From sequence record SRR20825006_1611: a DNA stretch of 44,906 nucleotides; one strand, 5' to 3'. The position numbers and the translations under genes are program-made. Below are positions 14,876-32,195 of the stretch, piece after piece. Position 1 is the first letter of the stretch. Each line of letters opens with the position of its first letter. The notes beneath the pieces were generated by a model that searched no databases, had not been told where the DNA came from, and saw nothing but the letters and a program-made list of their open reading frames with translations.

Positions 14876-15838
14876 CTAAAAGGTCGGTTCCGGGACATGG
14901 TTGCGGTAGAGCCTCTTGGCGAGCTCGACACGGGCCAGTGCATCCAGGCCCTCAATGTCTGCCTTCAGAGTCGCGTTCAACAGGGGGCGAATGCCGATCC
15001 GGTTGGCGACCTGAATCGCCAGGCCGGGACGGGCATTGAGCTCCAGCAGGAGCGGCCCCTTGGTCTTGTCCAGTACGATGTCGGCGCCGAGATAGCCGAG
15101 CCCGGTTACATCATAGGCCTTTGCTGCCATTTCGAGCATTGTGTCCCAGTGTGGCACCGAGAAATTCCGCAGCGGGTTTGCCGTGTCAGGATGGATGTCA
15201 GTGGTTTTGCCATTCTGCATGCCGCTGAGTGTCTTGCCGGTCACAAGATCCAATCCGACACCAACGCCGCCCTTATGGAGGTTTGCCTTACCGTCAGATT
15301 CTGCGGTCGGCAGACGCACCATGGCCACGGCAGGAATGCCCCGCACGACAATGATCCGGATATCCGGTACGCCGCCGAATGAGATCGGATTGAAGATTTC
15401 GTCGAACTTCACCCGGTACTCAAACATCGCCACATCCGGTTGGCCGCTTAGGCTGTACATGCCCGACAGGATGTTATTGACGTGGAAACGGATGTCTTCG
15501 AGCAGGGCGCGCTGCCCATTGGAACGGCGCCAGCCGCCACGCATTGGCTCCATCAGCACTTGAATCCCATTTCCCTGAGAGCCATTGGCGGGCTTGATGA
15601 CCACGCCATCCGGCTTGTCGAGATAGGATTCCAGATGGCGCATGTGGAACGGGTTGGCGATCACACCATAGAGTTCCGGTGTGGGAATATTGGCTGCGTT
15701 CGCAAGTCGCTTCGTCTCGCGCTTGTCATCAACCAGCCGGATCAGTCGCCTCGGATTGAGCTCATTGACGAGCCGGACATTCCGCTCGTTGATTCCGAGC
15801 AGTCCGGCACGTCGCAATGCCCGGTAGCGTCCGATCAT
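14876..15838 (-). CDS. Alpha-L-glutamate ligase-like (RimK-related) ATP-grasp protein
   Basis: GINERN, VDDK, VIKPANGSQGNGI, GVPDIR, ANLHKGG and LELNARPGLAIQ motifs. Confidence 0.9.
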   Translation of the reverse strand: MIGRYRALRRAGLLGINERNVRLVNELNPRRLIRLVDDKRETKRLANAANIPTPELYGVIANPFHMRHLESYLDKPDGVVIKPANGSQGNGIQVLMEPMRGGWRRSNGQRALLEDIRFHVNNILSGMYSLSGQPDVAMFEYRVKFDEIFNPISFGGVPDIRIIVVRGIPAVAMVRLPTAESDGKANLHKGGVGVGLDLVTGKTLSGMQNGKTTDIHPDTANPLRNFSVPHWDTMLEMAAKAYDVTGLGYLGADIVLDKTKGPLLLELNARPGLAIQVANRIGIRPLLNATLKADIEGLDALARVELAKRLYRNHVPEPTF

Positions 15839-17367
15839 TTCCGGTCATCCAGTTCACGGAAACGGATCAACTCGCTGAGGCGCAGGCCGGTATATTTCCC
15901 CATCAGCAGGCAGATCGCCATGATCACCAGAAGCAGTTCAGGGAAATTGAACATCAGATATTCGACATGCGTGTTGGTCATCACCAGATACGATGCTGCC
16001 GCCACCATGAGACTGCCAATGCCTTGCTTGATGGCCTCTGTAGCTGAGTATTCTTCCCATGCGATCGACATACGCTCGATCGTCATCGTCAGAATGACCA
16101 TGGGGAACAGCGAGATCGATAGACCGATGCGCTGACCGTTATTCGCCATGATCTGGGCGATCACAGCCATACAGATAACAATGAACACAACCACCGTCGC
16201 CAATCGCGGCACCAGCAACAGCTTCAATTTCTCTAGATAGAAGCGCACAGCGAGGCCCAGCGCGATCAGTGCGGTGAACAGGATCACGCCATTCACAAGA
16301 GCGGTTTCACGGAACGCAATTCCGATCAGGACGGGCATGAACGTGCCGAGTGTCTGAAGGCCGATGAACTGACGCAGGAAGACCAGCATCAGAATGCCAA
16401 CCGGGATGGTGACGAGCACCTGATAGACCAGCTGAGTGGTAATGGGCAGTCGGTTGAAGGAGAACCATTGCATGGCCGAGCCTTCTGCTTTGGCGACGCG
16501 CTGCATGACATCCGCCACGTCTGCGTTTACCGGCTGCAGGCTGACTTGCAGGTCCAGGTCCGAAATGCCTTCCGCGCGAATAAAATCATTCGTGCCATGC
16601 CAGATCGTGAAAAATTCTTCGGGGTCCGGGCCGGGGAAGTAGCGTCGATCGGCTCCATCGGCATGGTATTCAAGCCAGTGACGGATTTCGGCCCGTCGGC
16701 GTGCCTGGTCCATGTAAACACCATTAGCGACCCGCGCTGGAATTCCCTGACTTGTCAGCACATCACGTGCGAGTGCAAGGCGGGCGATCTGACGGGTGAG
16801 TGTGGGAGACAAGAGCGCTTCCACCTCATCGACATCGCCGTCCACGAATATCTCTTCCAACACCAGATCGGCGAGAGATTCATCGTCAGCGGATCGCCGG
16901 CGCAGATCTGTCGACCAGACCAGGAAGGCTTGCCGTTCAAGGTCATTCTCGGCTTCAGGCGCGGCGCGGCGCAGCTTGCGCTGCATGCTTTCCGGCAAGG
17001 GGCTAGCGAGCGTTTCGCCGAGCAGGCGCGCGCGGTAGCGGAGCACTTTCCGGTCATTCGGATAGCGGTAAGTCCAGATCGCGGTCCGGCCATCACCCTC
17101 GCGCGCATTCAGGCGCAGACCAAAGGCGCCGTTGTAGAATTGCTCCTGAGACACCCTGCGGTTTTCACTGTTCGATGGAATATAGGTTTCCAGTCGGACG
17201 GGTTGGTTGCTCGTGTCGAAATCGAGGTAGATTTCGAAATCCCATGTGGTCGTCCGTTCGCCGGGCGTCAGGGGATAGTCCAATTGCAGAACTTTGGTTG
17301 CGAATATGCCGAGGCCGATAGCGGCCAGAACCAGCGCAAGTAGTCGGGTATGTGTAAAACTATTCAC
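15835..17367 (-). CDS. Inactive transglutaminase domain fused to a 7TM domain
   Basis: GIPARVANG and HWLEY TGase-like fold without a visible catalytic Cys; C-terminal RQFIGLQTLGTFMPVLI..FPMVILTMTIER TM block. GTG 17367 overlaps the upstream stop. Confidence 0.88.
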   Translation of the reverse strand: MNSFTHTRLLALVLAAIGLGIFATKVLQLDYPLTPGERTTTWDFEIYLDFDTSNQPVRLETYIPSNSENRRVSQEQFYNGAFGLRLNAREGDGRTAIWTYRYPNDRKVLRYRARLLGETLASPLPESMQRKLRRAAPEAENDLERQAFLVWSTDLRRRSADDESLADLVLEEIFVDGDVDEVEALLSPTLTRQIARLALARDVLTSQGIPARVANGVYMDQARRRAEIRHWLEYHADGADRRYFPGPDPEEFFTIWHGTNDFIRAEGISDLDLQVSLQPVNADVADVMQRVAKAEGSAMQWFSFNRLPITTQLVYQVLVTIPVGILMLVFLRQFIGLQTLGTFMPVLIGIAFRETALVNGVILFTALIALGLAVRFYLEKLKLLLVPRLATVVVFIVICMAVIAQIMANNGQRIGLSISLFPMVILTMTIERMSIAWEEYSATEAIKQGIGSLMVAAASYLVMTNTHVEYLMFNFPELLLVIMAICLLMGKYTGLRLSELIRFRELDDRK

Positions 17368-17887
17368 TGTCGTCTTTTTCGCAGCTGCCTTCGGCGATGA
17401 ATGTCGAAGAGGAATCAACAAGCACGCGGGATGCCATGAACTCGCGGCCTACCAGGAAGTCGTACTCGAAATCCTCGCGGTCAGCCAAATTGACTTCAGC
17501 GAGTCCACTGACGCCGCCGATGCAGAGCGGCAAGTGGATGACGGGACGCCGGATGGTTCCGCCGGTTTTCAGCTTGATCAGCGCGAAGCGACGGACATTC
17601 TGGTCATATCGCACTGTGCGACCATTCTTGCCGACCAGACGAAACCGGACCCAGTCATCCTTGCCAGATTTATTGTAGATATGGACGTCACGGGCAAAAA
17701 CAGAGCTTGAATCAGCGCCGGTATCCAGCTTGCCCTTCATCTCCAGGCCGAGCTTGCCGACATAAACATTCTCGACATAGCCCATCACTGCCGGTTCGCT
17801 TGAGCGGTCGCGACTGTCCGCAATGGCGGAAACTATGGGCAGTGAAAGAACGGCCGTTGCGGCCAAGACGTGTCTCAGATACTTCAC
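17360..17887 (-). CDS. Exported retropepsin-like aspartic protease (RimK-associated 'ATP-dependent Zn protease' family)
   Basis: Signal peptide; KLDTGADSSS, RPVI and VNLADR..F.Y..LVGR motifs; start is GTG 17887 or ATG 17920. Confidence 0.87.
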   Translation of the reverse strand: MKYLRHVLAATAVLSLPIVSAIADSRDRSSEPAVMGYVENVYVGKLGLEMKGKLDTGADSSSVFARDVHIYNKSGKDDWVRFRLVGKNGRTVRYDQNVRRFALIKLKTGGTIRRPVIHLPLCIGGVSGLAEVNLADREDFEYDFLVGREFMASRVLVDSSSTFIAEGSCEKDDSE

Positions 17888-18082
17888 GAGAATTCGTTCC
17901 TCTTGCCTCAGGATCGGCATTTTTCGTCACCTAACATGCAAGGCATGCGGGCGATAGCTATCCGATCACTAGGTGGTCCCAAAACGGGACGCAAGGATGA
18001 TTGAATAGTTCCCTTAACAGCCCGATTCCGCCTGAAAAACCTGATTTCGTGGCATTTCTATGGTGAATGCTGGGATCGTCTG

Positions 18083-18098: not shown

Positions 18099-18361
18099 CC
18101 CAAATAGAATGGCGCTTGGCAGGTGTGCCATATCCCGACAAAAATTAACCAAGAATAGAATTTGAAAAAATATCTATTTCAGGTTGCGTTCATTGGCTGC
18201 TGCTTTACAGTAGTTTCTGGAGGGAGAGAGCTGAGTCTGTCTCACGGAACACAGTAGAGGGTTTTGACACGTCTTAGCAGGTGCGTTTCCCTTATCTGTG
18301 TTCAAATGTACGAGTCACGTCCGTCCTCGAAGAAATCGGGGTCAGCAAGCAGGAAGGCTTT

Positions 18362-19879
18362 ATGAGTCTGTCGGTGGATCAGGTTCTGGACCGTGTTCGT
18401 GAGAATGTCGGGCTATTCGTTCGCGACGGTTCCCTGCGAGCGGACGAGCAGGGCGCTCGTTCTGTCACACTTCCTGCAATTTATCCTGAATGGTTGGGGG
18501 ATGCAGCCTTTGCGCAAGCGCATGGCGCGCGCTTCAACTATGTCGTCGGCGAAATGGCCCGCGGGATTGCGACGCCGAAGATGGTGATAGAAGCCGTTCG
18601 CGCGGGATGCGTTGGCTTCTACGGCAGCGCGGGGCTGAAACCTGAAACCATTGAAGAAGGCGTGCGCGAGATCAAGGCTGGTATCGTACCGGGGCAAACT
18701 GCTTGGGGCGCGAACCTGATCCACTCTCCGCAACAGCCGGGCTATGAAGCGCGCGTCGTCGATCTCTTTCTGGCAATGGGAGTCCGGCGGGTGTCGGCTT
18801 CAGCCTATATGAGGCTTTCGCCAGACATCGTCCGTTATACAGCGCTTGGTCTCACACGCAGCGCGGACGGCAAGGTCCAGCGCGCCAACCACGTATTTGC
18901 CAAGGTCTCTCGCGCGGAAGTTGCCACCCAGTTCATGCAGCCTGCGCCTGAAAAAATACTGAAAACGTTGGTTTCTGAAGGGAGCATTTCTGCCGAGCAG
19001 GCCGAACTTGCTTCGAGAGTACCAGTAGCGCTGGATATCACCGCTGAAGCTGACAGTGGCGGTCACACCGACAATCGTTCTGCCGCTCCGCTCTTTTCCT
19101 CGTTGTCTCTGGCGCGAGACCGTGTCGCTGCAGAAACAGGCATAGACGCAAATGCGATCCGTATCGGCCTGGGCGGGGGTATAGCGACGCCACATGGCGT
19201 GGCCGCAGCATTTCAGATGGGCGCAGCATATGTGTTGACTGGCTCCATCAATCAGGCCGCCGTAGAATCCGGCTTGTCTGAACCTGCGCGACAATTGCTG
19301 GCCAAGGCAGGGCCGGCTGATATCGGCATGGCTCCCGCGGCCGACATGTTTGAGCAAGGTGTCGAAGTGCAGGTGCTGAAGCGCGGTACGCTCTTCGCGA
19401 TGCGGGCACGCAAGCTGCACGCGCTCTACAAGTCTGGTATGTCTTTTGAAACCATGGACCAGAAAGATCGCGACTGGCTGGAAGGCGTGCTCGGGGAATC
19501 CTTCCAGAGCGCTTGGGAGCAGACGCGGACCTTCATCTCGGAGTCGAATCCAAAGGAGGCAGCCCGCGCCGAAACCGATGGCAACAAGCGGCTCGCGCTC
19601 GTTGCGCGTCGCTATTTGTTCATGGGGGCTCAATGGGCACGTGATGGTGCTCCTGACCGCGTTTCCGATTACCAGATCTGGTGCGGCCCGGCGCAGGGTG
19701 CGTTCAATGAATGGGTCGCTGGCACATTTCTGGAGCCCATCGAGAACCGCACAATCCGCCAGATCGCCCTGAACCTGATGGAGGGCGCGACGCGTCTGAC
19801 ACGCGCCGGACAGATGCGCGCCTGTGGGATTGGCGTGCCACCCTCAGCGTTCTCCTACACGCCTCGAAAGTTTCTCTGA
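18362..19879 (+). CDS. pfaD: PfaD-family enoyl reductase (FabK-like, FMN)
   Basis: GEMARGIA, NLIHSP, FAKVSRAEVA, EADSGGHTD, APAADMFEQG and DYQIWCGPAQGAFN motifs; AGGAAGG RBS before ATG 18362. Confidence 0.95.
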   Translation: MSLSVDQVLDRVRENVGLFVRDGSLRADEQGARSVTLPAIYPEWLGDAAFAQAHGARFNYVVGEMARGIATPKMVIEAVRAGCVGFYGSAGLKPETIEEGVREIKAGIVPGQTAWGANLIHSPQQPGYEARVVDLFLAMGVRRVSASAYMRLSPDIVRYTALGLTRSADGKVQRANHVFAKVSRAEVATQFMQPAPEKILKTLVSEGSISAEQAELASRVPVALDITAEADSGGHTDNRSAAPLFSSLSLARDRVAAETGIDANAIRIGLGGGIATPHGVAAAFQMGAAYVLTGSINQAAVESGLSEPARQLLAKAGPADIGMAPAADMFEQGVEVQVLKRGTLFAMRARKLHALYKSGMSFETMDQKDRDWLEGVLGESFQSAWEQTRTFISESNPKEAARAETDGNKRLALVARRYLFMGAQWARDGAPDRVSDYQIWCGPAQGAFNEWVAGTFLEPIENRTIRQIALNLMEGATRLTRAGQMRACGIGVPPSAFSYTPRKFL

Positions 19880-22900: not shown

Positions 22901-23839
22901 GAATACGCCGTGCAGCCCCGTTCCTCCGCTGCGCCCGCTGCAACAGTCTCTGAGCGGATCATGCATGAAGTTTCCCAGCGCCATGCAGACTACATGTCTG
23001 CCATGTCGACAGCGCATTCGGCTTTCCTGAATATGGCCGCCCAGATGGCGGGCCAGGCACCCCTCGAACCCGCACGTATTCACGCGCCCGTTGCCTTGCC
23101 AGCTCCTGCTCCAGTGCCAGCGGCGCCGGTCCAACCACAGCCTTCGGTCAGTGATGTGAAGCCAAATGGCGCCTATCGCGAAGTAGAGTCCGCAGCCGCT
23201 CCCGCGCCGATGGCGGTCCCTGTACCCGCGGCCCAACCCGCGCCCCAGCCACAAGCCTCCGTTCAGCCTGCTCCAGTGGTGGCTCCGGCTCCAGCACCCT
23301 CTGCATCAGGGGGAGATTCCATCAGCCTGGTCCGCGGCATCATCGCCGAGAAGACCGGCTATCCCGAAGACATGCTCGAGCCCGACATGGACCTCGAAGG
23401 GGAACTCGGCGTCGACTCGATCAAGCAGGTCGAGATCCTGTCGACCCTACGCGAACGCATGCCAAGCCTGCCAGAGATTGATCCGGAACAGCTCGTGGAG
23501 TTGCGCACGATTGCCGCGATTGCGGGCATGATCGACGCGTCGGGTGTCGCCTCGGCGCCTGTACCAGTAATGAGTGCGGCTCCGGCGGCTGTGACGGCCT
23601 CGTCCAATGGCGGCGTTACGGCCGACACGGTCCGGGCCCTGATCGCGGAGAAGACCGGCTATCCGGAAGACATGCTCGAAGATGACATGGACCTCGAAGG
23701 AGAACTTGGGGTCGACTCGATCAAGCAGGTCGAAATCCTGTCGGCCCTGCGTGACCAGCATCCGGAATTGCCGGAAGTCGATCCCGAAGTGCTGGCGGAC
23801 CTTCGCACCATCCGGGCCATCGCAGATTTTTTTGCGTAA
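19907..23839 (+). CDS. pfaA: PfaA-like iterative type I PKS/FAS: KS-MAT-linker-ACP-ACP
   Basis: KS: DAACASS, HGTGT, GHSK. MAT: GQGSQ, GHSFGE, AFHS. Two ACPs with LGVDSIK. No KR in this frame. Confidence 0.93.
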   Translation: MSSKAATPIAIVGMGAIFPGRGDVTGFWRDIFEGRDLLSDVPASHWLVDDYYDSDPLAKDKTYGRRGGFIDPVAFDPLTFGIPPKTMEGTDTAQLLALIAAYATLQDIERDSEGRIDKSRTSVILGVASATELTAHMAGRLQRPVWVNAMREAGMPESEVVALAERIENHYVEWQEATFPGLLGNVVAGRIANRFDLGGSNMVTDAACASSLSALSIALHELRAGDSDTVLTGGVDALNDILMYMCFSKTPALSPTGDCRPFSNSADGTMLGEGIGMLALRRLDDAERDGNTIHAVIRGLGGGSDGKGTAIYAPVPEGQARALKRAYVQAGYGPEAVDLMEGHGTGTKAGDKAELDGLHLVFGEVKSDEPWCALGSVKSQMGHSKAAAGVASLVKTVNALSRKVLPPTIKVEEPADVIKESSAFYLNTEPRPWITTKKRPRRASVSSFGFGGSNYHVTLEEYVGKTAIRPYRVFPAELFLFSADTPDALATAIEASASGVDDASLAYAASQTHAGFESKAPARAAIIAETADDLKTKSESLASQIRAGEVGIRPFKADCFASFDAPVDGKIAFMFSGQGSQYVGMGSDLAMAFPEARAVWDQAASHKRTGKLRLDKLSFPPAAFDQVDFGAQTQTLTEMQHAQPAIAAVALSQLGLLSQLGLQADMAAGHSFGEIMALHLAGVMDSDTALTVAAERGALMAKAAGNTKGAMLAVQTDSATIAPVLKKIGQGLVLANDNGPDQVVLSGAQDIVEKARLECEALGLKARMLTVATAFHSEIVAEAVPPFAKVLAKQKLRTPKLDVFANATAQKYDAKVADLPDFISDQLIQPVRFREQVEAMHAAGARVFVEVGPGGVVTGLVGHILAGKPHLAISLDHKRRNGVNQFLLAIATLGVSGIDLDYAGLFAELPAQPPKPAPSRHAVKISGGNYNKPYPPANGAAGRAPSNPERPAVLESPAAQFPSTSNPVQAQSSPRPEHKVLPEQTGSPMTQDPSSKGPEYAVQPRSSAAPAATVSERIMHEVSQRHADYMSAMSTAHSAFLNMAAQMAGQAPLEPARIHAPVALPAPAPVPAAPVQPQPSVSDVKPNGAYREVESAAAPAPMAVPVPAAQPAPQPQASVQPAPVVAPAPAPSASGGDSISLVRGIIAEKTGYPEDMLEPDMDLEGELGVDSIKQVEILSTLRERMPSLPEIDPEQLVELRTIAAIAGMIDASGVASAPVPVMSAAPAAVTASSNGGVTADTVRALIAEKTGYPEDMLEDDMDLEGELGVDSIKQVEILSALRDQHPELPEVDPEVLADLRTIRAIADFFA
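23342..23825 (+). repeat. Tandem duplicated ACP domains (300-bp period)
   Basis: atcgccgagaagaccggctatcccgaagacatgctcga.. at 23342 versus atcgcggagaagaccggctatccggaagacatgctcga.. at 23642; near-identical proteins. Confidence 0.92.
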
Positions 23840-23865
23840 GGGGCGGCGGGGCGCCCGCTGCGCTC
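23827..23865 (+). other. Candidate -1 programmed ribosomal frameshift signal
   Basis: In-phase heptamer T_TTT_TTT (23827-33), spacer GCGTAA containing the stop, GC hairpin 23840-23865; the -1 frame is open into the KR ORF. Confidence 0.62.
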
Positions 23866-23949
23866 TCCCGTCCCGTCCCGCCGGCCGTTCCGGTTCCCAC
23901 CTATGAGAGTTTCGTTCGGCTAGTCTCGCCCGGGTTTGCGCAGCCCTGG

Positions 23950-25290
23950 GTGGCCGCTCAGGACCTTTCGGCATGGGGGCCGTTTGCCGTATCGGCTGGG
24001 GCATTGGAGATCGCAACCGAACTGGTTCAGGCGCTCACCGGACGAGGTGCTCAGGCGGACCTTCTGGGCGATAGCGTTCAGGGTGTTCAAACGGTGATCG
24101 TAACCGAAGGCCTTTCGCATTTGCCGGTAACGGAACGACACTGGCAGGTTCTGGACATTTGCAAGCGGCTGTATGCGAGCGGTGCCCGGATTGTGATTCT
24201 GGAGCATGCGGGCGCTGGCGGTTTTGCGCAGCTTTGCGGTCTGAAAGGCCTCTCGCGTACACTCCGTCAGGAATGGCCTGATCGGTCCATAGTAACGTGG
24301 TCACTTCCTGCTGGCGTGTCGCTGAACGCACAGGCTGAACTGGTCCTTGCCGCCGTCGCCTCCAATGCTCCCGAGGCAGATCTTGATGCGGCGGGTACTT
24401 CGGTGATGGAGATCGGCGCCGCACCTAGGCTGGTGCAAGCCGCTCCAACAGATGCAAACGTCTGGTTTGTGCCGGGAGGTGCGCGCGGTGTGACCGCAGC
24501 CTGCGTATCCGAACTGGCGCGTCGACAAGCGGGATCGACCTTTATTCTGGCAGGCCGGTCCGGCATCACGCCCTGGCCAGAAGGATTGCAGCCAACAAGC
24601 GACGTGAAACTTGTCCGGGGTGCGCTGATCTCCGCAGCCAAGGCGCGCGGCGAAAAGCCTGCCTTGCCTTCCATTGATCGTCAGGCGCGCGCGCTGCTGG
24701 CAGGACAGGAAATTCGTCACACACTGGACGTCATCGCGGCGGCAGGGGCGGGGGCTGTCTATTTGCAGGTAGACATGTCGAATCGCGAGAGCGTTCTCGC
24801 CGCCGTTCAGAAGATTACGGCTGAGTGCGGGCCGATTACTGGCCTCGTGCATGGGGCAGGGGTGCTGGCAGATGGGCTTGCCCTGAAGAAGACGCGAGAA
24901 GATGTGGAATATGTCTTCGGGCCGAAGGTCGAAGGCTTGGCAAACCTGATCGCCGCTATCGACCTTTCGCAGCTGCGCCATGTCGGCCTGTTTTCGTCCG
25001 CCTCCGCCGTATTCGGCAATACGGGGCAGAGCGACTATGCGATGGCCAATGCCTGGCTTGGCGCCGTTGCGCGGAAGCTCGCAACGCAACTGCCCGCCGC
25101 GATCGTCAAGAGTTTCTGTTGGGGCCCTTGGGATGGCGGCATGGTCGACGCAACACTGGCGGGACATTTCGCAACACGCGGCATTTCGTTGATTGGCCTT
25201 CAGGATGGCGCGCGCATCTTTGCTGACCAGATTCTTCAGGGAGACAGGCAAGAAATCGAACTATTGATCGGGGATGAGTGGGCAGGATGA
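23950..25290 (+). CDS. PfaA-type ketoreductase (SDR/KR) module; frame open from 23755, possibly translated as a fusion to the upstream ORF
   Basis: GGARGVTAAC Rossmann motif, HGAGVLAD, FSSAS..GNTGQSDYAMAN and WGPWDGGMV. No convincing RBS at GTG 23950 and no C-terminal DH. Confidence 0.88.
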   Translation: MAAQDLSAWGPFAVSAGALEIATELVQALTGRGAQADLLGDSVQGVQTVIVTEGLSHLPVTERHWQVLDICKRLYASGARIVILEHAGAGGFAQLCGLKGLSRTLRQEWPDRSIVTWSLPAGVSLNAQAELVLAAVASNAPEADLDAAGTSVMEIGAAPRLVQAAPTDANVWFVPGGARGVTAACVSELARRQAGSTFILAGRSGITPWPEGLQPTSDVKLVRGALISAAKARGEKPALPSIDRQARALLAGQEIRHTLDVIAAAGAGAVYLQVDMSNRESVLAAVQKITAECGPITGLVHGAGVLADGLALKKTREDVEYVFGPKVEGLANLIAAIDLSQLRHVGLFSSASAVFGNTGQSDYAMANAWLGAVARKLATQLPAAIVKSFCWGPWDGGMVDATLAGHFATRGISLIGLQDGARIFADQILQGDRQEIELLIGDEWAG

Positions 25291-28200
25291 CGGGTGATTG
25301 CCGATTTGAGCCGATTGCTATTGTCGGCCAGGGCTGCGTGCTGCCGGGGGCCATGAGCCCGGCGGAACTTGGCGATCTCGTCTTTGACAAGCGCGTGGTC
25401 TACGGCCCGGTGCCTTCTGAGCGGCTTGGGCTTTCGGAAGCAGATGCAGCTTCCCGAAACTATGTATCCGGAACGGTGCAAGGATTCGAGGATATCTTCG
25501 ATGAGGATCGTATTCCGGTAGCGTGGCGCGCAGCTGCCAGGATCGACCCGGTTTGCGCCTGGTCCGTTCATGCCGCGTTGGATGCGTGGAGCAACGCACG
25601 TCGTCCGAAGGTCCGAAAGGGCCGCGCAGGTGTCTTTGTGGCCAATCTTTCCTACCCAAGCGCGGCGCATGCAGACTATGCCGCACGCCATTGGGCGGGG
25701 CAGGCGCTTTCGGAACCGCTTGCGACGTTCAATGCTTCTCTTCCGCCCCAACTGATCGCTCAGACGCTCGGCCTGTCCGGGCCAGCATTCTCGCTTGATG
25801 CGGCGTGCGCCTCATCGCTCTATGCGCTGGAGATCGCCTGTCGACGGCTTCAATCGCAGGCGATTGATTGCGCCGTCGTTGTCGGCGTCAACGCGGCCGA
25901 CAATCTGATCCTCCATATCGGGTTCGAGGCGTTGAAGGCACTCAGCCCGACCGGCCAGTCACGACCCTTCGTGAAGGGCGCAGACGGATTAGTGCCATCT
26001 GAAGGAGCGGTCTCGGTTGTCCTGAAACGCCTGTCTGATGTGAAGAAGAAGGATGTCGTTCACGGTGTTATCCGGGGCATCGGCCTCTCGAATGATGGTC
26101 GGCGCAAGGGTTTGCTCGCCCCGTCCGGCGAGGGCCAGACTGAAGCCATGACGCGCGCATACACAATGGCGGGCGTGGATCCGAAGAGCGTGTCCTATCT
26201 GGAATGCCATGCGACCGGCACGCCGACTGGTGACGGTGTCGAGGTGCAGGCATCGGCGGACATGTTCGCAGGCAACAAAAATCTCGCCATCGGATCCCTG
26301 AAGGCCAATACAGGGCATCTCATCACGGCGGCGGGCCTGGCCAGCCTCCTCAAGCTGACCGAAGCGTTCAAGCGCGAAGCCCTGCCGCCTACACCGATTA
26401 GAGGTAACCTGATCGAAGTTGCTAGCCGGAACGGTATGACAGTTCTGGGGGAGGCCGCATCGTGGGAGCCGCGTAACGGAATTCGCCGCGCAGCTATTAG
26501 CAATTTCGGTTTCGGCGGCAACAATGCGCATCTGATCCTCGACCAGTATAATCCGGAATCGGATTTGGTTGAGGCGCGGGAGGCCAAGCTGTCCGAGCAG
26601 GACATCGTGATCTGCGGGACAGGCCTGCTGGCGGGTTCTGACCGCGGGGCGGACGCCGTCACGCGCCGCATCATGAACCAGCCGATAAAGCCTGCCACAG
26701 CCTGCCGAAAGGTGGGCGCAGATCCGAAGACTGCGCGAACTCCGCCAACGGATTTGCTTGAGGCGGAACCTCAGCAGCTCGCCATTGTCGATGTGGTGGA
26801 AGAAGCGCTGCAATCGGTAAAGCCTGTCGCATCCGATCGGGTGGGCATTTTTACCGGCATGGGCTGTGCGTCAGATTCGGCGCGTTGGCTGTTTAGAGAA
26901 CGCTTGGCAAATCTGGCAAGATTACCCCGGAACTCCGAGGAGCTTGCCACTGCGCAGGCCCTCGTTGCGCCACCGCTTCATGCAGCCACCGTTCTAGGTG
27001 CCATGGCGAACATGACCGCCAATCGCGTGACCTATGCGCATGATTTCCAGGGCATGGGGTTCTCGGTGTCTGCCGAGGCGGCTTCCGGCCTTGCCGCGCT
27101 GGACCTCGCCGTCGAAGCGCTGCGCTTGGGTCAGCTGGATATGGCCATCGTGGCCGCAGCAGACTTTGCGACCGAACCGGTTCGTGCCGCTGCGCTCGCA
27201 GATATCGGCATTACAGTGCGACCTGGTGACCAAGGTGCGGCCATCGTCCTGAAGCGAAAAGACGACGCTGAAGCCGCATCGGATCGGAACTTCGGGTCTC
27301 TCCATGACGTCAACTGGTCTAAGGGCGGAGCGTCCGAAACAGGCGTCATAAATCGCGTATTCGGCAAGGCTCCTTGCGCCTCGGTCGTGTTCGAACTGGC
27401 CCTGCAAGCGCAGCTCTGCGCACGGGGGCATGTGCTGACGGCGGAAGGCGCGGTGCCGGACATACGGGAAACGTCTCTTCCGGTCGACATCTCGGTTGCA
27501 GCAACGCAGCTCAACACCGTTGGCTCCGTCACATTCGATCCTGCAGATGCGGTGCCCATACCAGATGCGCTGCGGCCGACACCCTTCCTGTTCTGGGCCT
27601 CGGCAAAAGACAAAACGACGCTCGCCGCGCGCGTGGCATCCGGCAAGACAGGGGGCAGGGGCAAATGCCGTATTGCGATGGTTGCGCCCACTGAGGAAGC
27701 GCTCGCTGAACAGTTAGATTCTGCGCAGCAGATGCTGGAGCAGGGCAAAGCCCCTGTCGGCGACGGCGTCCACTTTGGCGAAGGCAAGCCTGAGGGCGAA
27801 CTCGCCTTCATGTTCACTGGATCTGCGGCCGTTTATCCCCGCATGGGACGTGGTCTGCTCTCGGCCTTCCCGGAATTGCGCCAGCGTCTCGCCAAACTCG
27901 ACAAGGCGGACGAGATCGCCCCACTGCTCGCCAAGGCCAGCCTGACGGAATTTGAACAATTGTGCGCTGGCACGCTGATGAGCCAGGCCCACGCAATCCT
28001 GTTGCTGGACCTTCTCGGTCTCAAGCCAGATGCGGCGCTCGGCCTGTCGCTTGGCGAGAGCAACGCGCTGTTCGCTTTCGGCTTCTGGCGTGATCCCGGC
28101 GCTCTGCTGGACGAGATTTCCGATGCCGCCATGTATGAGCGCCATATCGGCGGCGAGTTCGAAACGGCAAAAGAGGCGTGGGGCCCGAACGTCCCGGCGG

Positions 28201-31200
28201 ACTGGACCAATTGGCGTGTCCAGGCGCCGGTTGATGCCGTGAAGCGTGAAGTCGCCAAACATACTGGCGTCGAGATCACGATCATCTATTCGCGAACAGA
28301 CTGCATGATCGGCGGCCCGGCTGAGGCCTGCCGCAAGATCTGTGAAGTTCTTGGGCCCGGCAGCGGCGCAAAGATGCACCAGCATCTGATTGTGCATGCC
28401 AAGGCCATGCGGCCCTTCGCGGAAACGTGGCGCAAGCTGCATACGCGCAAGATGCATGATGGGGACGGGGTGCGTCTCTACGCCAATGCCGTCAATGCCG
28501 CCTATGAGCCGACCAGCGAAACCTCGGCAGATATGCTAACCCGGCAGGCCATCGATACAGTAGATTTTCCGCCTACGGTCGAACAGGCATGGAAAGATGG
28601 CGTGCGCACCTTTGTGGAGCTTGGCCCGCGCGACACGCTGACCGCAGCACTTGGCAATATCCTTGAAGGCAAAGACTACAAGGCGGTCGCCACCGACCGC
28701 ATTGAAACAGCGGACTTGGGACAGGTCGCCGACCTCGCCGCCTTCCTGTTCGCGGACGGGCGCGCTCCCAAGATGAAGCTCATTGCAGGAACGCTGGAGG
28801 ACGGGAGGCGCAACAGGACCGTGCGGCCTGCGCCCTGGGCGCTGACACGCGATGTCCCTTACGCCAGGCCTATTGTTCCGGCCCTAATCCCAACAAGCCG
28901 GATGCCGGTTGCGCCGATTTTGGCCGCCGTGAACTATCCTGCGCCATGCGATTCAAAAGTCAGCACCACGCCGGTGCCATTCCCCGCGCCGCCAGCAGAC
29001 CGACCGCTGCCCGCGCCGCGCAAGGTGACTGCTGGAACAGAGCCACTTCTGCCGCGATCACCCGCAGGACCGCACTGGAACTATCCCGAGATCGAGAAAT
29101 CCGCGCGTGAGAAGATGTCTGACTTCTTCGGCGCCGCATTCAAACCGCAGGACAAATATGCTCGTCAGGTGCGCCTGCCAGCGCCCCCTTTGCTGCTCGT
29201 CGACCGGATCACCGGAATCGATGCAGAGGCCGGAGTCGAGAGTACCGGCATCATCTGGACCGAGACCGATTTGAAGCCGGATCAATGGTTCATCCATGAT
29301 GGCCGGATCCGACCCGGTCCGCTGATCGAAAGCGGGCAAGCTGACCTGACCTTGATCGGCTGGATGGGGGCGGACTTCAAGAACCAGGATGACCGGGTCT
29401 ATCGCCTTCTGGGGTGCGAAATCACATTCCATGAGGGCGGCCTGCCAGAGCCCGGTGAGACGCTACACTTCCAGATCGAGATCACCGGGCACGCGACACT
29501 CGCCGGTGTCCGCATGTTTTTCTTCCAGTATGATTGTATGGCGGGCGACCGCCGCGTCTTCTCCGTGCGAAACGGTCAGGCCGGCTTCTTCAGCGATGAC
29601 GAACTTGCCTCCGGAAAGGGCGTCATGTGGGATCCCGCCAAGGATGCACCGCCTACCGCAGACCCCACGCCATTTGCCGCCGAGGGCGCGAGCCGGAAGC
29701 GAGCTTTCAGTGCCAGAGATCTGGACGCTTACCGGGTCGGCAATGCCTGGGCGTGCTTTGGCGACGGGTTCGAACTGGTGGCCGCGCAGTCACGTCCGAT
29801 CCGTCTGCCGGACGACAGGCTGGCTCTCTTCGATGATGTCAAAGCCTTTGACCCCCATGGCGGGCCGTGGGGCAGGGGATATTTGAAAGCCCGCGCGCAT
29901 GTGCCGGTCGATGCCTGGTTCTATGAGGGTCATTTCCACAATGACCCCTGCATGCCGGGGACGCTGATGGCTGAGGCCGCCGTACAGACACTGGAGTTCT
30001 ATGCAGCGGCCGCGGGCCTGCTGACCGAACGTGACGGGTATGTCTTCGAACCGATGCCGGGCCATATGGCGCAATTCGTCTGCCGGGGGCAGGTCATTCC
30101 GGATACGGACCACGAGGTGACCTATGAGGTCTTCATCGATGAGATCATCGATGGAGAAACCCCGGAAATTTACGCGTCCCTTCTGGCAAGCAGTGACGGC
30201 AAGAAGGTGTTCTATTGCCCGCGCTTCGGCCTGCGCCTGCGCCGTGATTGGCCAGCACCACGCGTCGCCGAAGCACCGATCCGAACCGGGCCGATGGGGG
30301 AGAGTCGGGGTGACCATGATGCGCTGCTAGATTGCGCCAATGGTGCGCCATCGGCGGCCTTTGGCGAAATGTATGATCGGTTCGATTCCGAAGGCATCGT
30401 ACCCAGACTGCCGCAAGAGCCATATCACATGATGACGCGGGTCATCGACGTGTCCACACGGCCGGGCGTGCAGGAAGTTGGCGCAAAAGTTCGCGCCGAA
30501 TACGACATTCCTACGGATGCCTGGTATTTCGAGGACAACAGGAATGGGGCCATGCCCTTCGCCGTCCTGTCGGAGATCGCGCTGCAGCCGTGTGGGTGGC
30601 TCGCCAGCCATTGCGGTTTTGCCTTGTCCGGTAATCTGAAATTCCGAAATCTCGAAGGCGATGGAGTCCTGCATCGCGAGCTCAGCCCAGACGATGGGAC
30701 TATGGTCGTTGAGAGCGAGTTGACGGCCTTCTCCCGTGTCGGACCGATGACCATTGTGACCTTCGGCGTTGTGGTCACGCTAGCCTCAGGCGAACCTGTC
30801 CTGGACCTGACGACCCAGTTCGGATTCTTTCCAGCTGCCGCGCTCGTGCGCCAGGCCGGCCTGTCGGCCAAGCCGCATTTCTCTGCTGCGTTCGACCTGC
30901 CGGGCGAAAAAGTGAAGACGCGCATGATTGAAAAGCGCCTTGCAGGCGGCAAGATGCGCATGCTGGACGCGGTCGACTATTTCAACCCGACCGGCGGAGA
31001 GGCCGGGCTTGGTCTGATCCGGGGCCGCCAAGCAGTTGATCCGAATGCGTGGTACTTCAAGGCGCACTTCTATCAGGATCCGGTCCAGCCGGGGTCGCTC
31101 GGCCTTGATGCGCTCGCACAATTGCTGGCGCACGCCATTCTGCTCAAGGGACTGGATGAGGGCATGAGCGACCCGCACTTTGAAACCATTGCGACCGGCG

Positions 31201-31391
31201 CACCGTTCAAATGGAGCTATCGCGGACAGGTGACGCCCGACAAGAAAGAAGTCGTTACCGTGATGGAGATTGTTTCCATAGAGAACCGCGACAAGGGCTG
31301 GTTGGTCACTGCACGAGGAAGCCTGTGGCGGGATGGCCTGCGTGTTTACGAAGTCGGTCCCTACAGCCTTGCGCTGGTGGACAAAGGCTAG
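25287..31391 (+). CDS. PfaB/C-like fusion: KS-CLF-AT-(pseudoDH-DH)x2 with FabA-type dehydratases
   Basis: KS: DAACASS, HATGT, GHL. CLF: SVSAEAASG (no Cys). AT: GLSLGE. DH: GHFHNDPCMPGTLM and AHFYQDPVQPGSLG. ATGA overlap with the KR ORF. Confidence 0.93.
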   Translation: MTGDCRFEPIAIVGQGCVLPGAMSPAELGDLVFDKRVVYGPVPSERLGLSEADAASRNYVSGTVQGFEDIFDEDRIPVAWRAAARIDPVCAWSVHAALDAWSNARRPKVRKGRAGVFVANLSYPSAAHADYAARHWAGQALSEPLATFNASLPPQLIAQTLGLSGPAFSLDAACASSLYALEIACRRLQSQAIDCAVVVGVNAADNLILHIGFEALKALSPTGQSRPFVKGADGLVPSEGAVSVVLKRLSDVKKKDVVHGVIRGIGLSNDGRRKGLLAPSGEGQTEAMTRAYTMAGVDPKSVSYLECHATGTPTGDGVEVQASADMFAGNKNLAIGSLKANTGHLITAAGLASLLKLTEAFKREALPPTPIRGNLIEVASRNGMTVLGEAASWEPRNGIRRAAISNFGFGGNNAHLILDQYNPESDLVEAREAKLSEQDIVICGTGLLAGSDRGADAVTRRIMNQPIKPATACRKVGADPKTARTPPTDLLEAEPQQLAIVDVVEEALQSVKPVASDRVGIFTGMGCASDSARWLFRERLANLARLPRNSEELATAQALVAPPLHAATVLGAMANMTANRVTYAHDFQGMGFSVSAEAASGLAALDLAVEALRLGQLDMAIVAAADFATEPVRAAALADIGITVRPGDQGAAIVLKRKDDAEAASDRNFGSLHDVNWSKGGASETGVINRVFGKAPCASVVFELALQAQLCARGHVLTAEGAVPDIRETSLPVDISVAATQLNTVGSVTFDPADAVPIPDALRPTPFLFWASAKDKTTLAARVASGKTGGRGKCRIAMVAPTEEALAEQLDSAQQMLEQGKAPVGDGVHFGEGKPEGELAFMFTGSAAVYPRMGRGLLSAFPELRQRLAKLDKADEIAPLLAKASLTEFEQLCAGTLMSQAHAILLLDLLGLKPDAALGLSLGESNALFAFGFWRDPGALLDEISDAAMYERHIGGEFETAKEAWGPNVPADWTNWRVQAPVDAVKREVAKHTGVEITIIYSRTDCMIGGPAEACRKICEVLGPGSGAKMHQHLIVHAKAMRPFAETWRKLHTRKMHDGDGVRLYANAVNAAYEPTSETSADMLTRQAIDTVDFPPTVEQAWKDGVRTFVELGPRDTLTAALGNILEGKDYKAVATDRIETADLGQVADLAAFLFADGRAPKMKLIAGTLEDGRRNRTVRPAPWALTRDVPYARPIVPALIPTSRMPVAPILAAVNYPAPCDSKVSTTPVPFPAPPADRPLPAPRKVTAGTEPLLPRSPAGPHWNYPEIEKSAREKMSDFFGAAFKPQDKYARQVRLPAPPLLLVDRITGIDAEAGVESTGIIWTETDLKPDQWFIHDGRIRPGPLIESGQADLTLIGWMGADFKNQDDRVYRLLGCEITFHEGGLPEPGETLHFQIEITGHATLAGVRMFFFQYDCMAGDRRVFSVRNGQAGFFSDDELASGKGVMWDPAKDAPPTADPTPFAAEGASRKRAFSARDLDAYRVGNAWACFGDGFELVAAQSRPIRLPDDRLALFDDVKAFDPHGGPWGRGYLKARAHVPVDAWFYEGHFHNDPCMPGTLMAEAAVQTLEFYAAAAGLLTERDGYVFEPMPGHMAQFVCRGQVIPDTDHEVTYEVFIDEIIDGETPEIYASLLASSDGKKVFYCPRFGLRLRRDWPAPRVAEAPIRTGPMGESRGDHDALLDCANGAPSAAFGEMYDRFDSEGIVPRLPQEPYHMMTRVIDVSTRPGVQEVGAKVRAEYDIPTDAWYFEDNRNGAMPFAVLSEIALQPCGWLASHCGFALSGNLKFRNLEGDGVLHRELSPDDGTMVVESELTAFSRVGPMTIVTFGVVVTLASGEPVLDLTTQFGFFPAAALVRQAGLSAKPHFSAAFDLPGEKVKTRMIEKRLAGGKMRMLDAVDYFNPTGGEAGLGLIRGRQAVDPNAWYFKAHFYQDPVQPGSLGLDALAQLLAHAILLKGLDEGMSDPHFETIATGAPFKWSYRGQVTPDKKEVVTVMEIVSIENRDKGWLVTARGSLWRDGLRVYEVGPYSLALVDKG

Positions 31392-32059
31392 GCGCACTCG
31401 CTCGCGACGCAAGTGACAATGTCTCCGTGCAGGAAGCACGAAATGTCGAATATGCGATCCGTATGCGATACTTGTCCCTGGGAAGTCTCACCAAGGATGA
31501 GGCTTGCGGATAGGTTGATCGTCGGTGCCCCCATGCGGAATCCCTGACCGGCGGCTTTCATGATGGCCTCCTTGATCGTCCACAGCCTGTAGAATGGGAG
31601 GAGATCGTCGTTAGCGATACCGCTGAATATCTTTCGCTCCGAAGCCGAACACATCATCGGCAGCATCTGTCGCCAATCGATGTCGCGAACCTTTTCGATA
31701 TCAATTCCGACCGCTTTGTCATGAGAGGTGGCGAAGGCAGACCAGCCCCCGGTGCGAGAAATCGACAGATACAGTTCCCGCATATTTCGCAGGGAAGGCG
31801 CCCCGAGCGTATCATGTTCGAGAACTATATCCGCCTTCGCTTGGCCGAGATGATTTGAAAGGCCGGTTCGCACAGCTGCGAATGAGCGTTCCAGATCAAG
31901 ACGTATGTCTGGATCGAACAACTTTCCAAGGCGCGCGTACTCGGTATTTGTGAGGACCGATGACTGCGTCTGTACCTCCGAATGATCCAGAATATACGCC
32001 GAGATGCTCGGCTGCTCCGGCGCGCGGGTCTGAGATGAGGGAATGTCGAGTTGGATCAT
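31388..32059 (-). CDS. Sfp-type 4'-phosphopantetheinyl transferase (PfaE-like)
   Basis: GAPSL, LSISRT, VGIDIE and FYRLWTIKEAIMKAAGQG motifs; convergent 4-bp overlap with the PKS gene; start uncertain. Confidence 0.9.
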   Translation of the reverse strand: MIQLDIPSSQTRAPEQPSISAYILDHSEVQTQSSVLTNTEYARLGKLFDPDIRLDLERSFAAVRTGLSNHLGQAKADIVLEHDTLGAPSLRNMRELYLSISRTGGWSAFATSHDKAVGIDIEKVRDIDWRQMLPMMCSASERKIFSGIANDDLLPFYRLWTIKEAIMKAAGQGFRMGAPTINLSASLILGETSQGQVSHTDRIFDISCFLHGDIVTCVASECA

Positions 32060-32195
32060 GTCAGGCAGGCTGCAAGTGATATACCGGATCAGCGCGGGAA
32101 ATGATCCAATTACAGCCAAGAATATACACACACCGCTTGTTTCCGCTAGAAGTCGGAATGAGCCCGTATATGCACTTCCGGACCTGACATTGACT

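Follow-up and report, generated by a model that had tools for sequence, protein, structure and literature searches.

The closest described counterparts of the gene junction analysed here are the programmed −1 ribosomal frameshifts of Escherichia coli dnaX, of orfA-orfB in the insertion sequences (IS) IS3/IS911 and of retroviral gag-pol. dnaX (tau/gamma) is a chromosomal, non-mobile gene in which an in-phase heptamer lies close to a stop codon and is separated by about 6 nt from a simple stem-loop, two products being made from one mRNA; in the IS and retroviral systems, ribosomes shift by −1 shortly before the upstream open reading frame (ORF) ends, and a longer fusion with an enzymatic part results. 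These traits have observed or proposed parallels in the DNA studied here, a stretch of 44,906 nt from sequence record SRR20825006_1611 (hereafter the window), the host genus of which is Hyphomonas and which carries a Pfa-type cluster, akin to those for polyunsaturated fatty acid (PUFA) synthases. In this cluster, the gene for the ketosynthase (KS), malonyl-acyltransferase (MAT) and two acyl carrier protein (ACP) domains ends in a stop codon, and the ketoreductase (KR) follows in the −1 frame. A preliminary description of the window proposed that a programmed −1 frameshift fuses the two; each comparative test that we ran supported this proposal, and we consider it likely, with a probability of about 0.85 on the comparative sequence evidence, that ribosomes translate the KS-MAT-ACP2 and KR genes as a single unit through programmed −1 frameshifting.

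To our knowledge, few programmed −1 frameshifts have been proven in bacterial genes that belong to neither phages nor insertion sequences, and the Hyphomonas junction differs in several respects from the systems just named. The dnaX heptamer is A_AAA_AAG and that of Hyphomonas is U_UUU_UUY. In addition, dnaX uses an upstream Shine-Dalgarno-like stimulator, no conserved equivalent of which is present in Hyphomonas, and its shifted product is the shorter one, whereas the shift in Hyphomonas would add an enzyme module of 485 residues. The IS and retroviral cases belong to mobile elements or viruses, whereas the Hyphomonas gene encodes a biosynthetic megasynthase and, unlike them, has a sense codon and the 0-frame stop between heptamer and hairpin. 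U-rich slip sites are on record in both groups: some IS elements use U_UU.U_UU.C, according to a heptamer survey (PMC4066793), and HIV-1 (U_UUU_UUA) is described, in another account (PMC4373837), as having, like Hyphomonas, a U-rich heptamer followed by GGG at the base of the stem-loop.

As to the gene family, canonical PfaA proteins of Shewanella, myxobacteria and actinomycetes share with the window the domain order KS-MAT-ACPn-KR and the neighbouring genes, which encode a PfaD-like enoyl reductase (ER), a PfaC-like protein with KS, chain-length factor (CLF), acyltransferase (AT) and two dehydratase (DH) domains, and a phosphopantetheinyl transferase (PPTase). The canonical ACP-KR frame is continuous, as it is in 48 of the 56 non-Hyphomonas loci in our comparison, whereas in Hyphomonas it is split over two frames; in addition, the Hyphomonas protein has only two ACPs, and the C-terminal region of PfaA is missing. 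A member of the same synthase family in a metagenome-assembled genome (MAG) of the Chloroflexia (L085) resembles Hyphomonas in having two ORFs offset by −1. Unlike the Hyphomonas junction, however, its split lies inside KR, between the structural and catalytic subdomains, and is formed by an ATGATGA stop/start overlap with no slippery heptamer. This is the look of an ordinary split, from which the Hyphomonas junction differs.

The 0 frame of the window ends, as the preliminary description had it, with ...ATC GCA GAT TTT TTT GCG TAA GGG, where TAA occupies positions 23837–23839 and the translation closes with AIADFFA. For comparison, 41 related genomes were searched and one genome per species was scanned. 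Loci L001–L044, minus L017, whose contig ends short, provided 43 loci of the Hyphomonas type in which the end of the ACP gene is covered; together with the window they comprise 35 distinct 90-nt junctions, with KR identities to the window down to 37%. In the window and in 43 of 43 Hyphomonas-type loci, GAT TTT TT(T/C) is followed by a single sense codon, a stop and GGG; since no locus found lacks this motif, the search pattern with which the loci were gathered has not biased the count. In 35 of 35 distinct junctions, Asp is written GAT and the first Phe TTT, against pooled usages of 42% and 29% in the same genes, and other invariant residues just upstream of the heptamer are written with two to five codons each. 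The second Phe codon is TTT in 18 junctions and TTC in 17, the heptamer being slippery with either, and the stop stands at an identical codon position in all 35 while its identity varies (TGA in 17, TAA in nine, TAG in nine). Within the 44.9-kb window, T7 is the sole coding A/T run of seven or more. Judging from this codon usage, the slip site is under reduced synonymous variation.

Homopolymers are error-prone in some sequencing technologies, and one strain has a lesion in the region (L021, discussed below), but an artefact or decay, that is, an assembly error in the T7 tract or a frameshifted pseudogene, would have had to produce the identical −1 offset in 43 of 43 independent loci, over T6C or T7 and never in frame. 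The downstream KR ORFs, moreover, are intact (469–518 codons) and conserved. The stretch is contained in 19 public runs from 16 studies, and four of these, two DNA and two RNA-library runs from four studies, were examined. Their contigs cross the tract without an indel; an assembly error, the T7-versus-T8 question raised in the preliminary description, is therefore excluded, and the probability of artefact or decay as a whole is practically negligible. Phase variation through changes in homopolymer length is unsupported in Hyphomonas as well, the tract being T6C or T7 in 44 of 44 sequences and never in frame.

In nearly all of the 35 junctions, a hairpin begins at the first base past the stop, 6 nt from the heptamer. 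Its outer stem is GGGGCGG/CCGUCCC in the window and GGGRYGG/CCGUCCC across the relatives, and the inner stem varies by subclade. The minimum free energy fold of nearly all 35 junctions has this common architecture, at −17 to −29 kcal/mol (−26.8/−30 for the window). For the covariation test, 30 distinct junctions were aligned without gaps; three hairpins shorter by 3 nt are misaligned there and count against the structure. Standard pairs fill 83.6% of the cells, versus 52.9–58.3% when the 3' partners are slid by one to three columns. Two-sided changes affect 10 of the 14 pairs and 45 cells; shuffles gave 18.2 ± 3.7 cells and in none of 500 reached 45. The outer stem and four inner pairs were independently recovered by RNAalifold. 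We conclude from this covariation that the hairpin is kept by selection.

A covariance model built on this structure returned one strong match per genome in five of five Hyphomonas genomes, always at this junction, with at most 22 bits elsewhere; the idea of a repeated element was rejected on this ground. No Rfam family was found at the junction, two sub-threshold matches elsewhere being due to chance, and no intrinsic terminator or promoter was predicted there. The details of the structure given in the preliminary description did not hold: its pairing of GCGGCGGG with CCCGCTGC is in another register and is not the conserved fold of 23840–23874, and its alternative downstream partner is a local duplication of CCGTCCC that is absent from most relatives. 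The tandem CCGTCCC copy exists in the window because of a T at position 23876, where the contigs of all four runs and L001 have G.

The −1 frame, which reads FFCVRGGGAPAALSRPVPPAVPVPTYESFVR..., is free of stops from 23755 to 25290, and the product lengths derived from it in the preliminary description, 1310 aa and 1309 + 485 = 1794 aa, are right. It continues into KR in 42 of 43 loci. Among 19 loci in which its length was followed, 18 have it open for 1418–1454 nt from the heptamer, and the +1 frame closes within 7–106 nt. The −1 translations can be aligned from the two Phe residues onward, beginning with a variable, hairpin-encoded part and continuing through a near-invariant R-P, which corresponds to CGU CCC of the 3' arm of the hairpin, and a short linker to the motif Y-x-x-x-V-R-P-V. 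Among 34 sequences, the Tyr of YxxxVR is conserved in 29, the Val in 33 and the Arg in 28, the latter being written CGG, AGA, CGC, AGG or CGT. Heptamer and conserved Val are 28, 29, 31 or 32 residues apart, in frame in all 34, and length changes have therefore kept the frame. In homologs with a fused ACP-KR, the counterpart of YxxxVR in the alignment is the RYxLRxV strand at the beginning of the KR module.

An AlphaFold2 model of KR, based on the 34-sequence alignment, has a mean predicted local distance difference test score (pLDDT) of 89.7 and a predicted template modelling score (pTM) of 0.88. Residues 1–19 are disordered in it, and the first KR strand is formed by residues 30–35 (positions 23914–23931; pLDDT ~90), upstream of Val42, the residue encoded by GTG 23950. 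In a Foldseek search, the model matched the complete two-subdomain KRs 2fr0 and 5ktk of polyketide synthases (PKSs) with TM scores of 0.68–0.70. The open frame, the alignment, the frame-keeping length changes and the model together indicate that the stretch between the stop and KR is coding. An alignment of the kind suggested in the preliminary description showed that heptamer, stop, hairpin and −1 offset are all kept in the orthologous clusters; a plain fusion occurs in no orthologous locus, nor does KR have a conserved start of its own in any of them.

According to the mechanism that we envisage, two tRNA-Phe would be positioned on UUU UUU (23828–23833) while the 35-nt hairpin, 6 nt downstream, stands at the mRNA entrance of the ribosome. 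A fraction of ribosomes would then slip back by one base onto U_UUU_UU and continue with UGC GUA AGG..., translating the hairpin as a disordered, Pro/Ala-rich linker and after it the ketoreductase. Their product would be a KS-MAT-ACP2-KR protein of 1794 aa, with ...AIADFF joined to CVR... at the junction. Ribosomes that do not shift would read GCG, stop at TAA and release the 1310-aa KS-MAT-ACP2 form. The sequences themselves show the signal with its conservation and covariation, an unbroken coding −1 frame, the lack of a conserved start and the T7 tract in independent assemblies; the slip on the ribosome, its efficiency and the role, proposed in the preliminary description, of the two isoforms in setting the ratio of KR to carrier protein are inferred. 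A PKS-type KR is required in each elongation cycle of Pfa synthases, and in the nearest genome no second PKS-type KR was seen with this KR as query, the other matches being FabG-like only; for these two reasons, the frameshift event is probably not rare. In the heptamer survey (PMC4066793), heptamers of the form H_HH.U_UU.Y rank with the most efficient −1 motifs of E. coli.

Several observations weigh against frameshifting at this junction. The hairpin of the window, taken alone, is unexceptional: its 64 nt fold at −30 kcal/mol, shuffled sequences at a mean of −27.1 (z −1.0), 30 of 200 shuffles fold as well, and such a z-score is typical for GC-rich DNA. With a z of −1.0, single-sequence folding was dropped as support, and since the lone fold is not beyond chance, the case rests on comparison, namely on covariation, invariant synonymous positions and uniqueness. 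According to an older E. coli study, cited in a recoding review (PMC5009743), U_UUU_UUU is far less prone to shifting than A_AAA_AAG. The two RNA-library contigs have T7 and no indel; being contigs, they hide minor variants and may reflect DNA carry-over, and they are compatible with an unedited main transcript without being proof of one. In L005–L008, an in-frame ATG lies 41 nt past the stop, after the hairpin, and the Val of YxxxVR is written GTG in 19 of the 34 sequences; independent initiation of KR is conceivable in both sets.

The remaining point against the frameshift comes from Hyphomonas sp. L-53-1-40 (L002/L021), the nearest relative of the window, with a KR that is 98% identical. 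This strain has a 32-nt deletion, equivalent to positions 23872–23903 of the window, that removes the 3' arm of the outer stem and shuts the −1 frame after 35 nt; the intact KR frame of 472 codons now stands in the 0 frame, directly behind the TAA. At least one strain thus either can do without the signal or has it broken. Either the KR of L-53-1-40 needs read-through of the TAA or the internal GTG, or the cluster is impaired; the deletion could be on the way to a fusion, could have cost the cluster its function or could be a fault of the assembly.

The extra base might instead be gained in the transcript, if RNA polymerase added one U in part of the transcripts and the ribosome stayed in frame. 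Homopolymeric A/T runs such as the T7 of the window are known polymerase slippage sites, as covered in the recoding review (PMC5009743), and minor RNA variants cannot be revealed by contigs. However, the run is no longer than T6 before a C in 17 of the 35 junctions, a short tract for polymerase slippage, and it always stands in one phase with respect to the 0 frame, a constancy that such slippage does not need. The covarying hairpin exactly 6 nt downstream is a hallmark of ribosomal frameshifting, whereas a hairpin 3' of the run is without a known role in polymerase slippage. Given also that the two RNA-library contigs have T7 and no indel, we consider transcriptional slippage improbable and ribosomal frameshifting the better account.

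Alternatively, these could be two ordinary genes, with KR initiating at GTG 23950 or, in the relatives, at other starts, the hairpin serving stability, processing or coupling, and the U-run unrelated. The GTG is present and, as had been claimed, is the only start: between 23767 and 23950 the −1 frame contains no ATG, GTG, TTG, CTG or ATH codon. Also as claimed, the next junction is ATGA-coupled, the KR stop overlapping an ATG at 25287–25290. The accompanying argument that the GTG has no ribosome-binding site proved weak and was dropped; the upstream ATG at 19907 has likewise just a weak AAGG, and Shine-Dalgarno sequences are weak either way across the cluster, a circumstance that leaves room for two genes. 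The first ATG, GTG or TTG past the slip site was located in 34 sequences, counting in nt after the stop. It lies at −4 in one sequence, at 41 in five (ATG in L005–L008, GTG in L026), at 44 in one, at 65 in one, at 71 or 74 in 19 (each time the GTG for the Val of YxxxVR), at 104–122 in five, among them the window, at 224 in one (L043, H. atlantica) and at 248 in one (L029). In seven of the 34, it is thus positioned downstream of the conserved V-R strand, and a KR made from the starts at 224 or 248 nt, which are inside the conserved domain, would lose about 50 conserved residues. By this survey, no KR start codon is conserved among the relatives.

The ATG of L005–L008, the GTG of the 19 sequences and the deletion strain L021, which can make KR only by such initiation or by read-through of the TAA, favour separate genes. 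Yet the sequence before the start is conserved as protein, with varied Arg codons and in frame with the heptamer in 34 of 34 sequences, and forms the first strand of the KR fold, and with two ordinary genes the invariant GAT TTT at synonymous sites would be otherwise unexplained. On balance, separate genes are an improbable account of the Hyphomonas junction, and programmed −1 frameshifting is preferred.

Junctions of a similar kind, in which KR lies in the −1 frame behind an in-phase slippery heptamer, occur at this domain boundary in five other lineages. Apart from the 48 with ACP and KR in one frame, the 56 non-Hyphomonas loci include two without the ACP region, one that is unresolved, the Chloroflexia locus split inside KR, and four that stop soon after an A-run and have KR in the −1 frame. 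In Paenibacillus eucommiae (L086, about 2860–2885), the ACP-KR junction reads CAA AAA AAA AAG AAC TAA; in a second Paenibacillus species (L104, G063), whose KR is 47% identical to that of P. eucommiae, it reads GGA AAA AAG TAG and is followed by a hairpin. Both have an in-phase A_AAA_AAG and a KR in the −1 frame, which is open for more than 2300 nt. An A_AAA_AAA heptamer with KR in the −1 frame is present in the one Anaerolineaceae locus analysed (MAG L099) and in a SAR324 single-cell genome (L075), as part of an A8–A10 slip-like site past the last ACP (2246–2258 in L099, 2157–2178 in L075). These two loci have a second frame change between the KR subdomains (L099, 2980–2989; L075, 2758–2819), and their KR is spread over three frames in all.

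Among 20 Bradymonadales-related loci, 15 are fused and five have −1 junctions (L105/L067, L106, L108, L109, L120). Four of the latter read GAA AAA AAA AAG, A10 then C, GGA AAA AAG TAA and GAA AAA AAG TAA; the fifth reads CTG GGA AAC GCC TAG, with the heptamer G_GGA_AAC, followed by a hairpin of −29.5 kcal/mol. The A-run heptamer is A_AAA_AAG in three of these genomes and A_AAA_AAA/A_AAA_AAC in L106. No A-run follows the ACP in any of the 15 fused loci, and the idea of an ancestral poly-Lys linker hit by indels was rejected for Bradymonadales on that ground. Counting all nine non-Hyphomonas −1 cases, an in-phase X_XXY_YYZ heptamer lies 0–18 nt before the stop in nine of nine. It is possible that the A10 tracts of L067, L086, L106 and L075 are mutable or phase-variable sites; the A6G cases are not easily so explained.

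A KR tree of 110 sequences, obtained by a quick search with midpoint rooting and containing some long branches, places the U-type junctions in one clade (36 rows; Shimodaira-Hasegawa-like approximate likelihood ratio test [SH-aLRT] support 93), in keeping with a single origin. The A/G-type junctions need six changes on this tree, at least three of which are forced by well-supported branches, and L120 is sister to a fused locus. Two loci with a Hyphomonas-type junction, from a MAG labelled as the gammaproteobacterium Granulosicoccus (L037) and from a MAG labelled Pseudomonadota (L027), fall inside the Hyphomonadaceae KR clade, a placement that points to horizontal transfer or mis-binned contigs. 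We find it somewhat easier to believe than to doubt that ribosomal −1 frameshifting at the ACP-KR boundary is a recurrent, convergently evolved design of PfaA-type synthases and not a Hyphomonas oddity.

In a sample of Myxococcota, KR was found in 84 of 301 genomes, and 15 loci with short open frames were examined. Twelve of the 15 were continuous as far as sequence was retrieved, and open-frame length was discarded as a poor proxy for a split. The remaining loci comprise one +1 break with no signal and two −1 junctions without a canonical heptamer (L131, G285, and L137, G402), in which a C7...G7 hairpin comes after the stop and KR is encoded beyond that stop in the −1 frame. For these two, either a P-site slip on C_CCU or a KR start at an internal ATG (ARMDVALVP) may be considered.

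The features of the junction and of the surrounding cluster are collected in Table 1. The cluster is compact, with genes for a PfaD-like ER, KS-MAT-ACP-ACP, KR, KS-CLF-AT-DH2 and a PPTase, and the partners expected of a PfaA-type protein (PfaD, a PfaC-like protein and a PPTase) are present. Once both frames are read together, KS, MAT, tandem ACPs and KR stand in PfaA-type order. The KS-MAT-ACP2 ORF scores 1011.4 bits against the PfaA profile TIGR02813 (cut-off 1010.1), over profile positions 7–949, and the KR ORF covers positions 1913–2267. The match falls short of a full-length PfaA, the KR ORF stopping at profile position 2267 of 2582 and the next ORF opening with a KS.

Table 1. Positions in the window of the frameshift junction and the genes of the Pfa-type cluster.
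Feature	Position	Strand	Basis or remark
Enoyl reductase gene (PfaD family), with which the cluster begins	18281..19879	+	TIGR02814 pfaD_fam, 535.6 bits (cut-off 449)
0-frame ORF KS-MAT-ACP-ACP, 1310 aa, end DFFA-TAA	19907..23839	+	Pfam ketoacyl-synt, Acyl_transf_1, 2x PP-binding
Putative slippery heptamer T_TTT_TTT, in phase X_XXY_YYZ	23827..23833	+	T_TTT_TTT or T_TTT_TTC in relatives
−1 frame continuation: linker and two-subdomain ketoreductase, 485 codons + stop	23833..25290	+	Pfam KR, 1.2e-30
6-nt spacer: sense codon GCG and 0-frame stop TAA	23834..23839	+	sequence
Putative stimulatory hairpin, 35 nt: 7 bp, 1 nt, 7 bp, 5-nt loop, mirror image	23840..23874	+	folding and covariation
Y-x-x-x-V-R motif and first KR beta-strand (VRLVSP)	23902..23931	+	upstream of any canonical start
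GTG, first ATG/GTG/TTG of the KR frame	23950..23952	+	codon scan; not conserved as a start
KS-CLF-AT-DH(FabA)x2 gene, PfaC-like	25287..31391	+	domain/profile matches
Phosphopantetheinyl transferase gene, PfaE-like, convergent	31388..32131	-	Pfam ACPS, 8.8e-14

The two ACP domains are near-identical in DNA over about 120 nt (23629–23748 in the window versus the upstream ACP copy), and contigs align there twice; to judge from this tandem repeat, the number of ACPs could be changed by recombination. Upstream of the cluster, on the minus strand at 14876–17920, is a set of three genes, for an ATP-grasp protein, an inactive transglutaminase-7TM fusion and a putative zinc protease, which has no relation to the frameshift finding.

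Full-text searches of the literature yielded no relevant account of frameshifting in connection with PUFA synthase, pfaA, ketoreductase, polyketide synthase or Hyphomonas, and no publication was found that links Hyphomonas with pfa genes. The main texts of a recoding review, the GeneTack survey, the heptamer survey, a Pfa review and a survey of secondary-lipid synthases do not mention such a case (PMC5009743, PMC3711429, PMC4066793, PMC4882568, PMC3098273), and supplementary tables of candidate families may bear on priority. As far as can be seen, the mechanism is textbook, and the gene family and the use at a domain boundary are new.

If the reading proposed here is true, it would be of high interest for recoding and megasynthase biology. 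The annotation of such clusters as two genes would be wrong and the start of KR ill-defined, and heterologous expression would require a host in which the signal functions, or a fusion of the genes, failing which there would be no product or an altered one. The covarying hairpins (30 aligned sequences) offer clean natural data from which rules for bacterial frameshift stimulators may be drawn. The cluster would also be a natural case in which the ratio of carrier scaffold to tailoring domain in a megasynthase is set at translation. Should the design prove recurrent, cells would deliberately make a KR-less carrier form together with a KR-bearing form and set their ratio; since the stability of a hairpin rises in the cold, one may speculate that this ratio responds to temperature, the classic trigger of PUFA synthesis.

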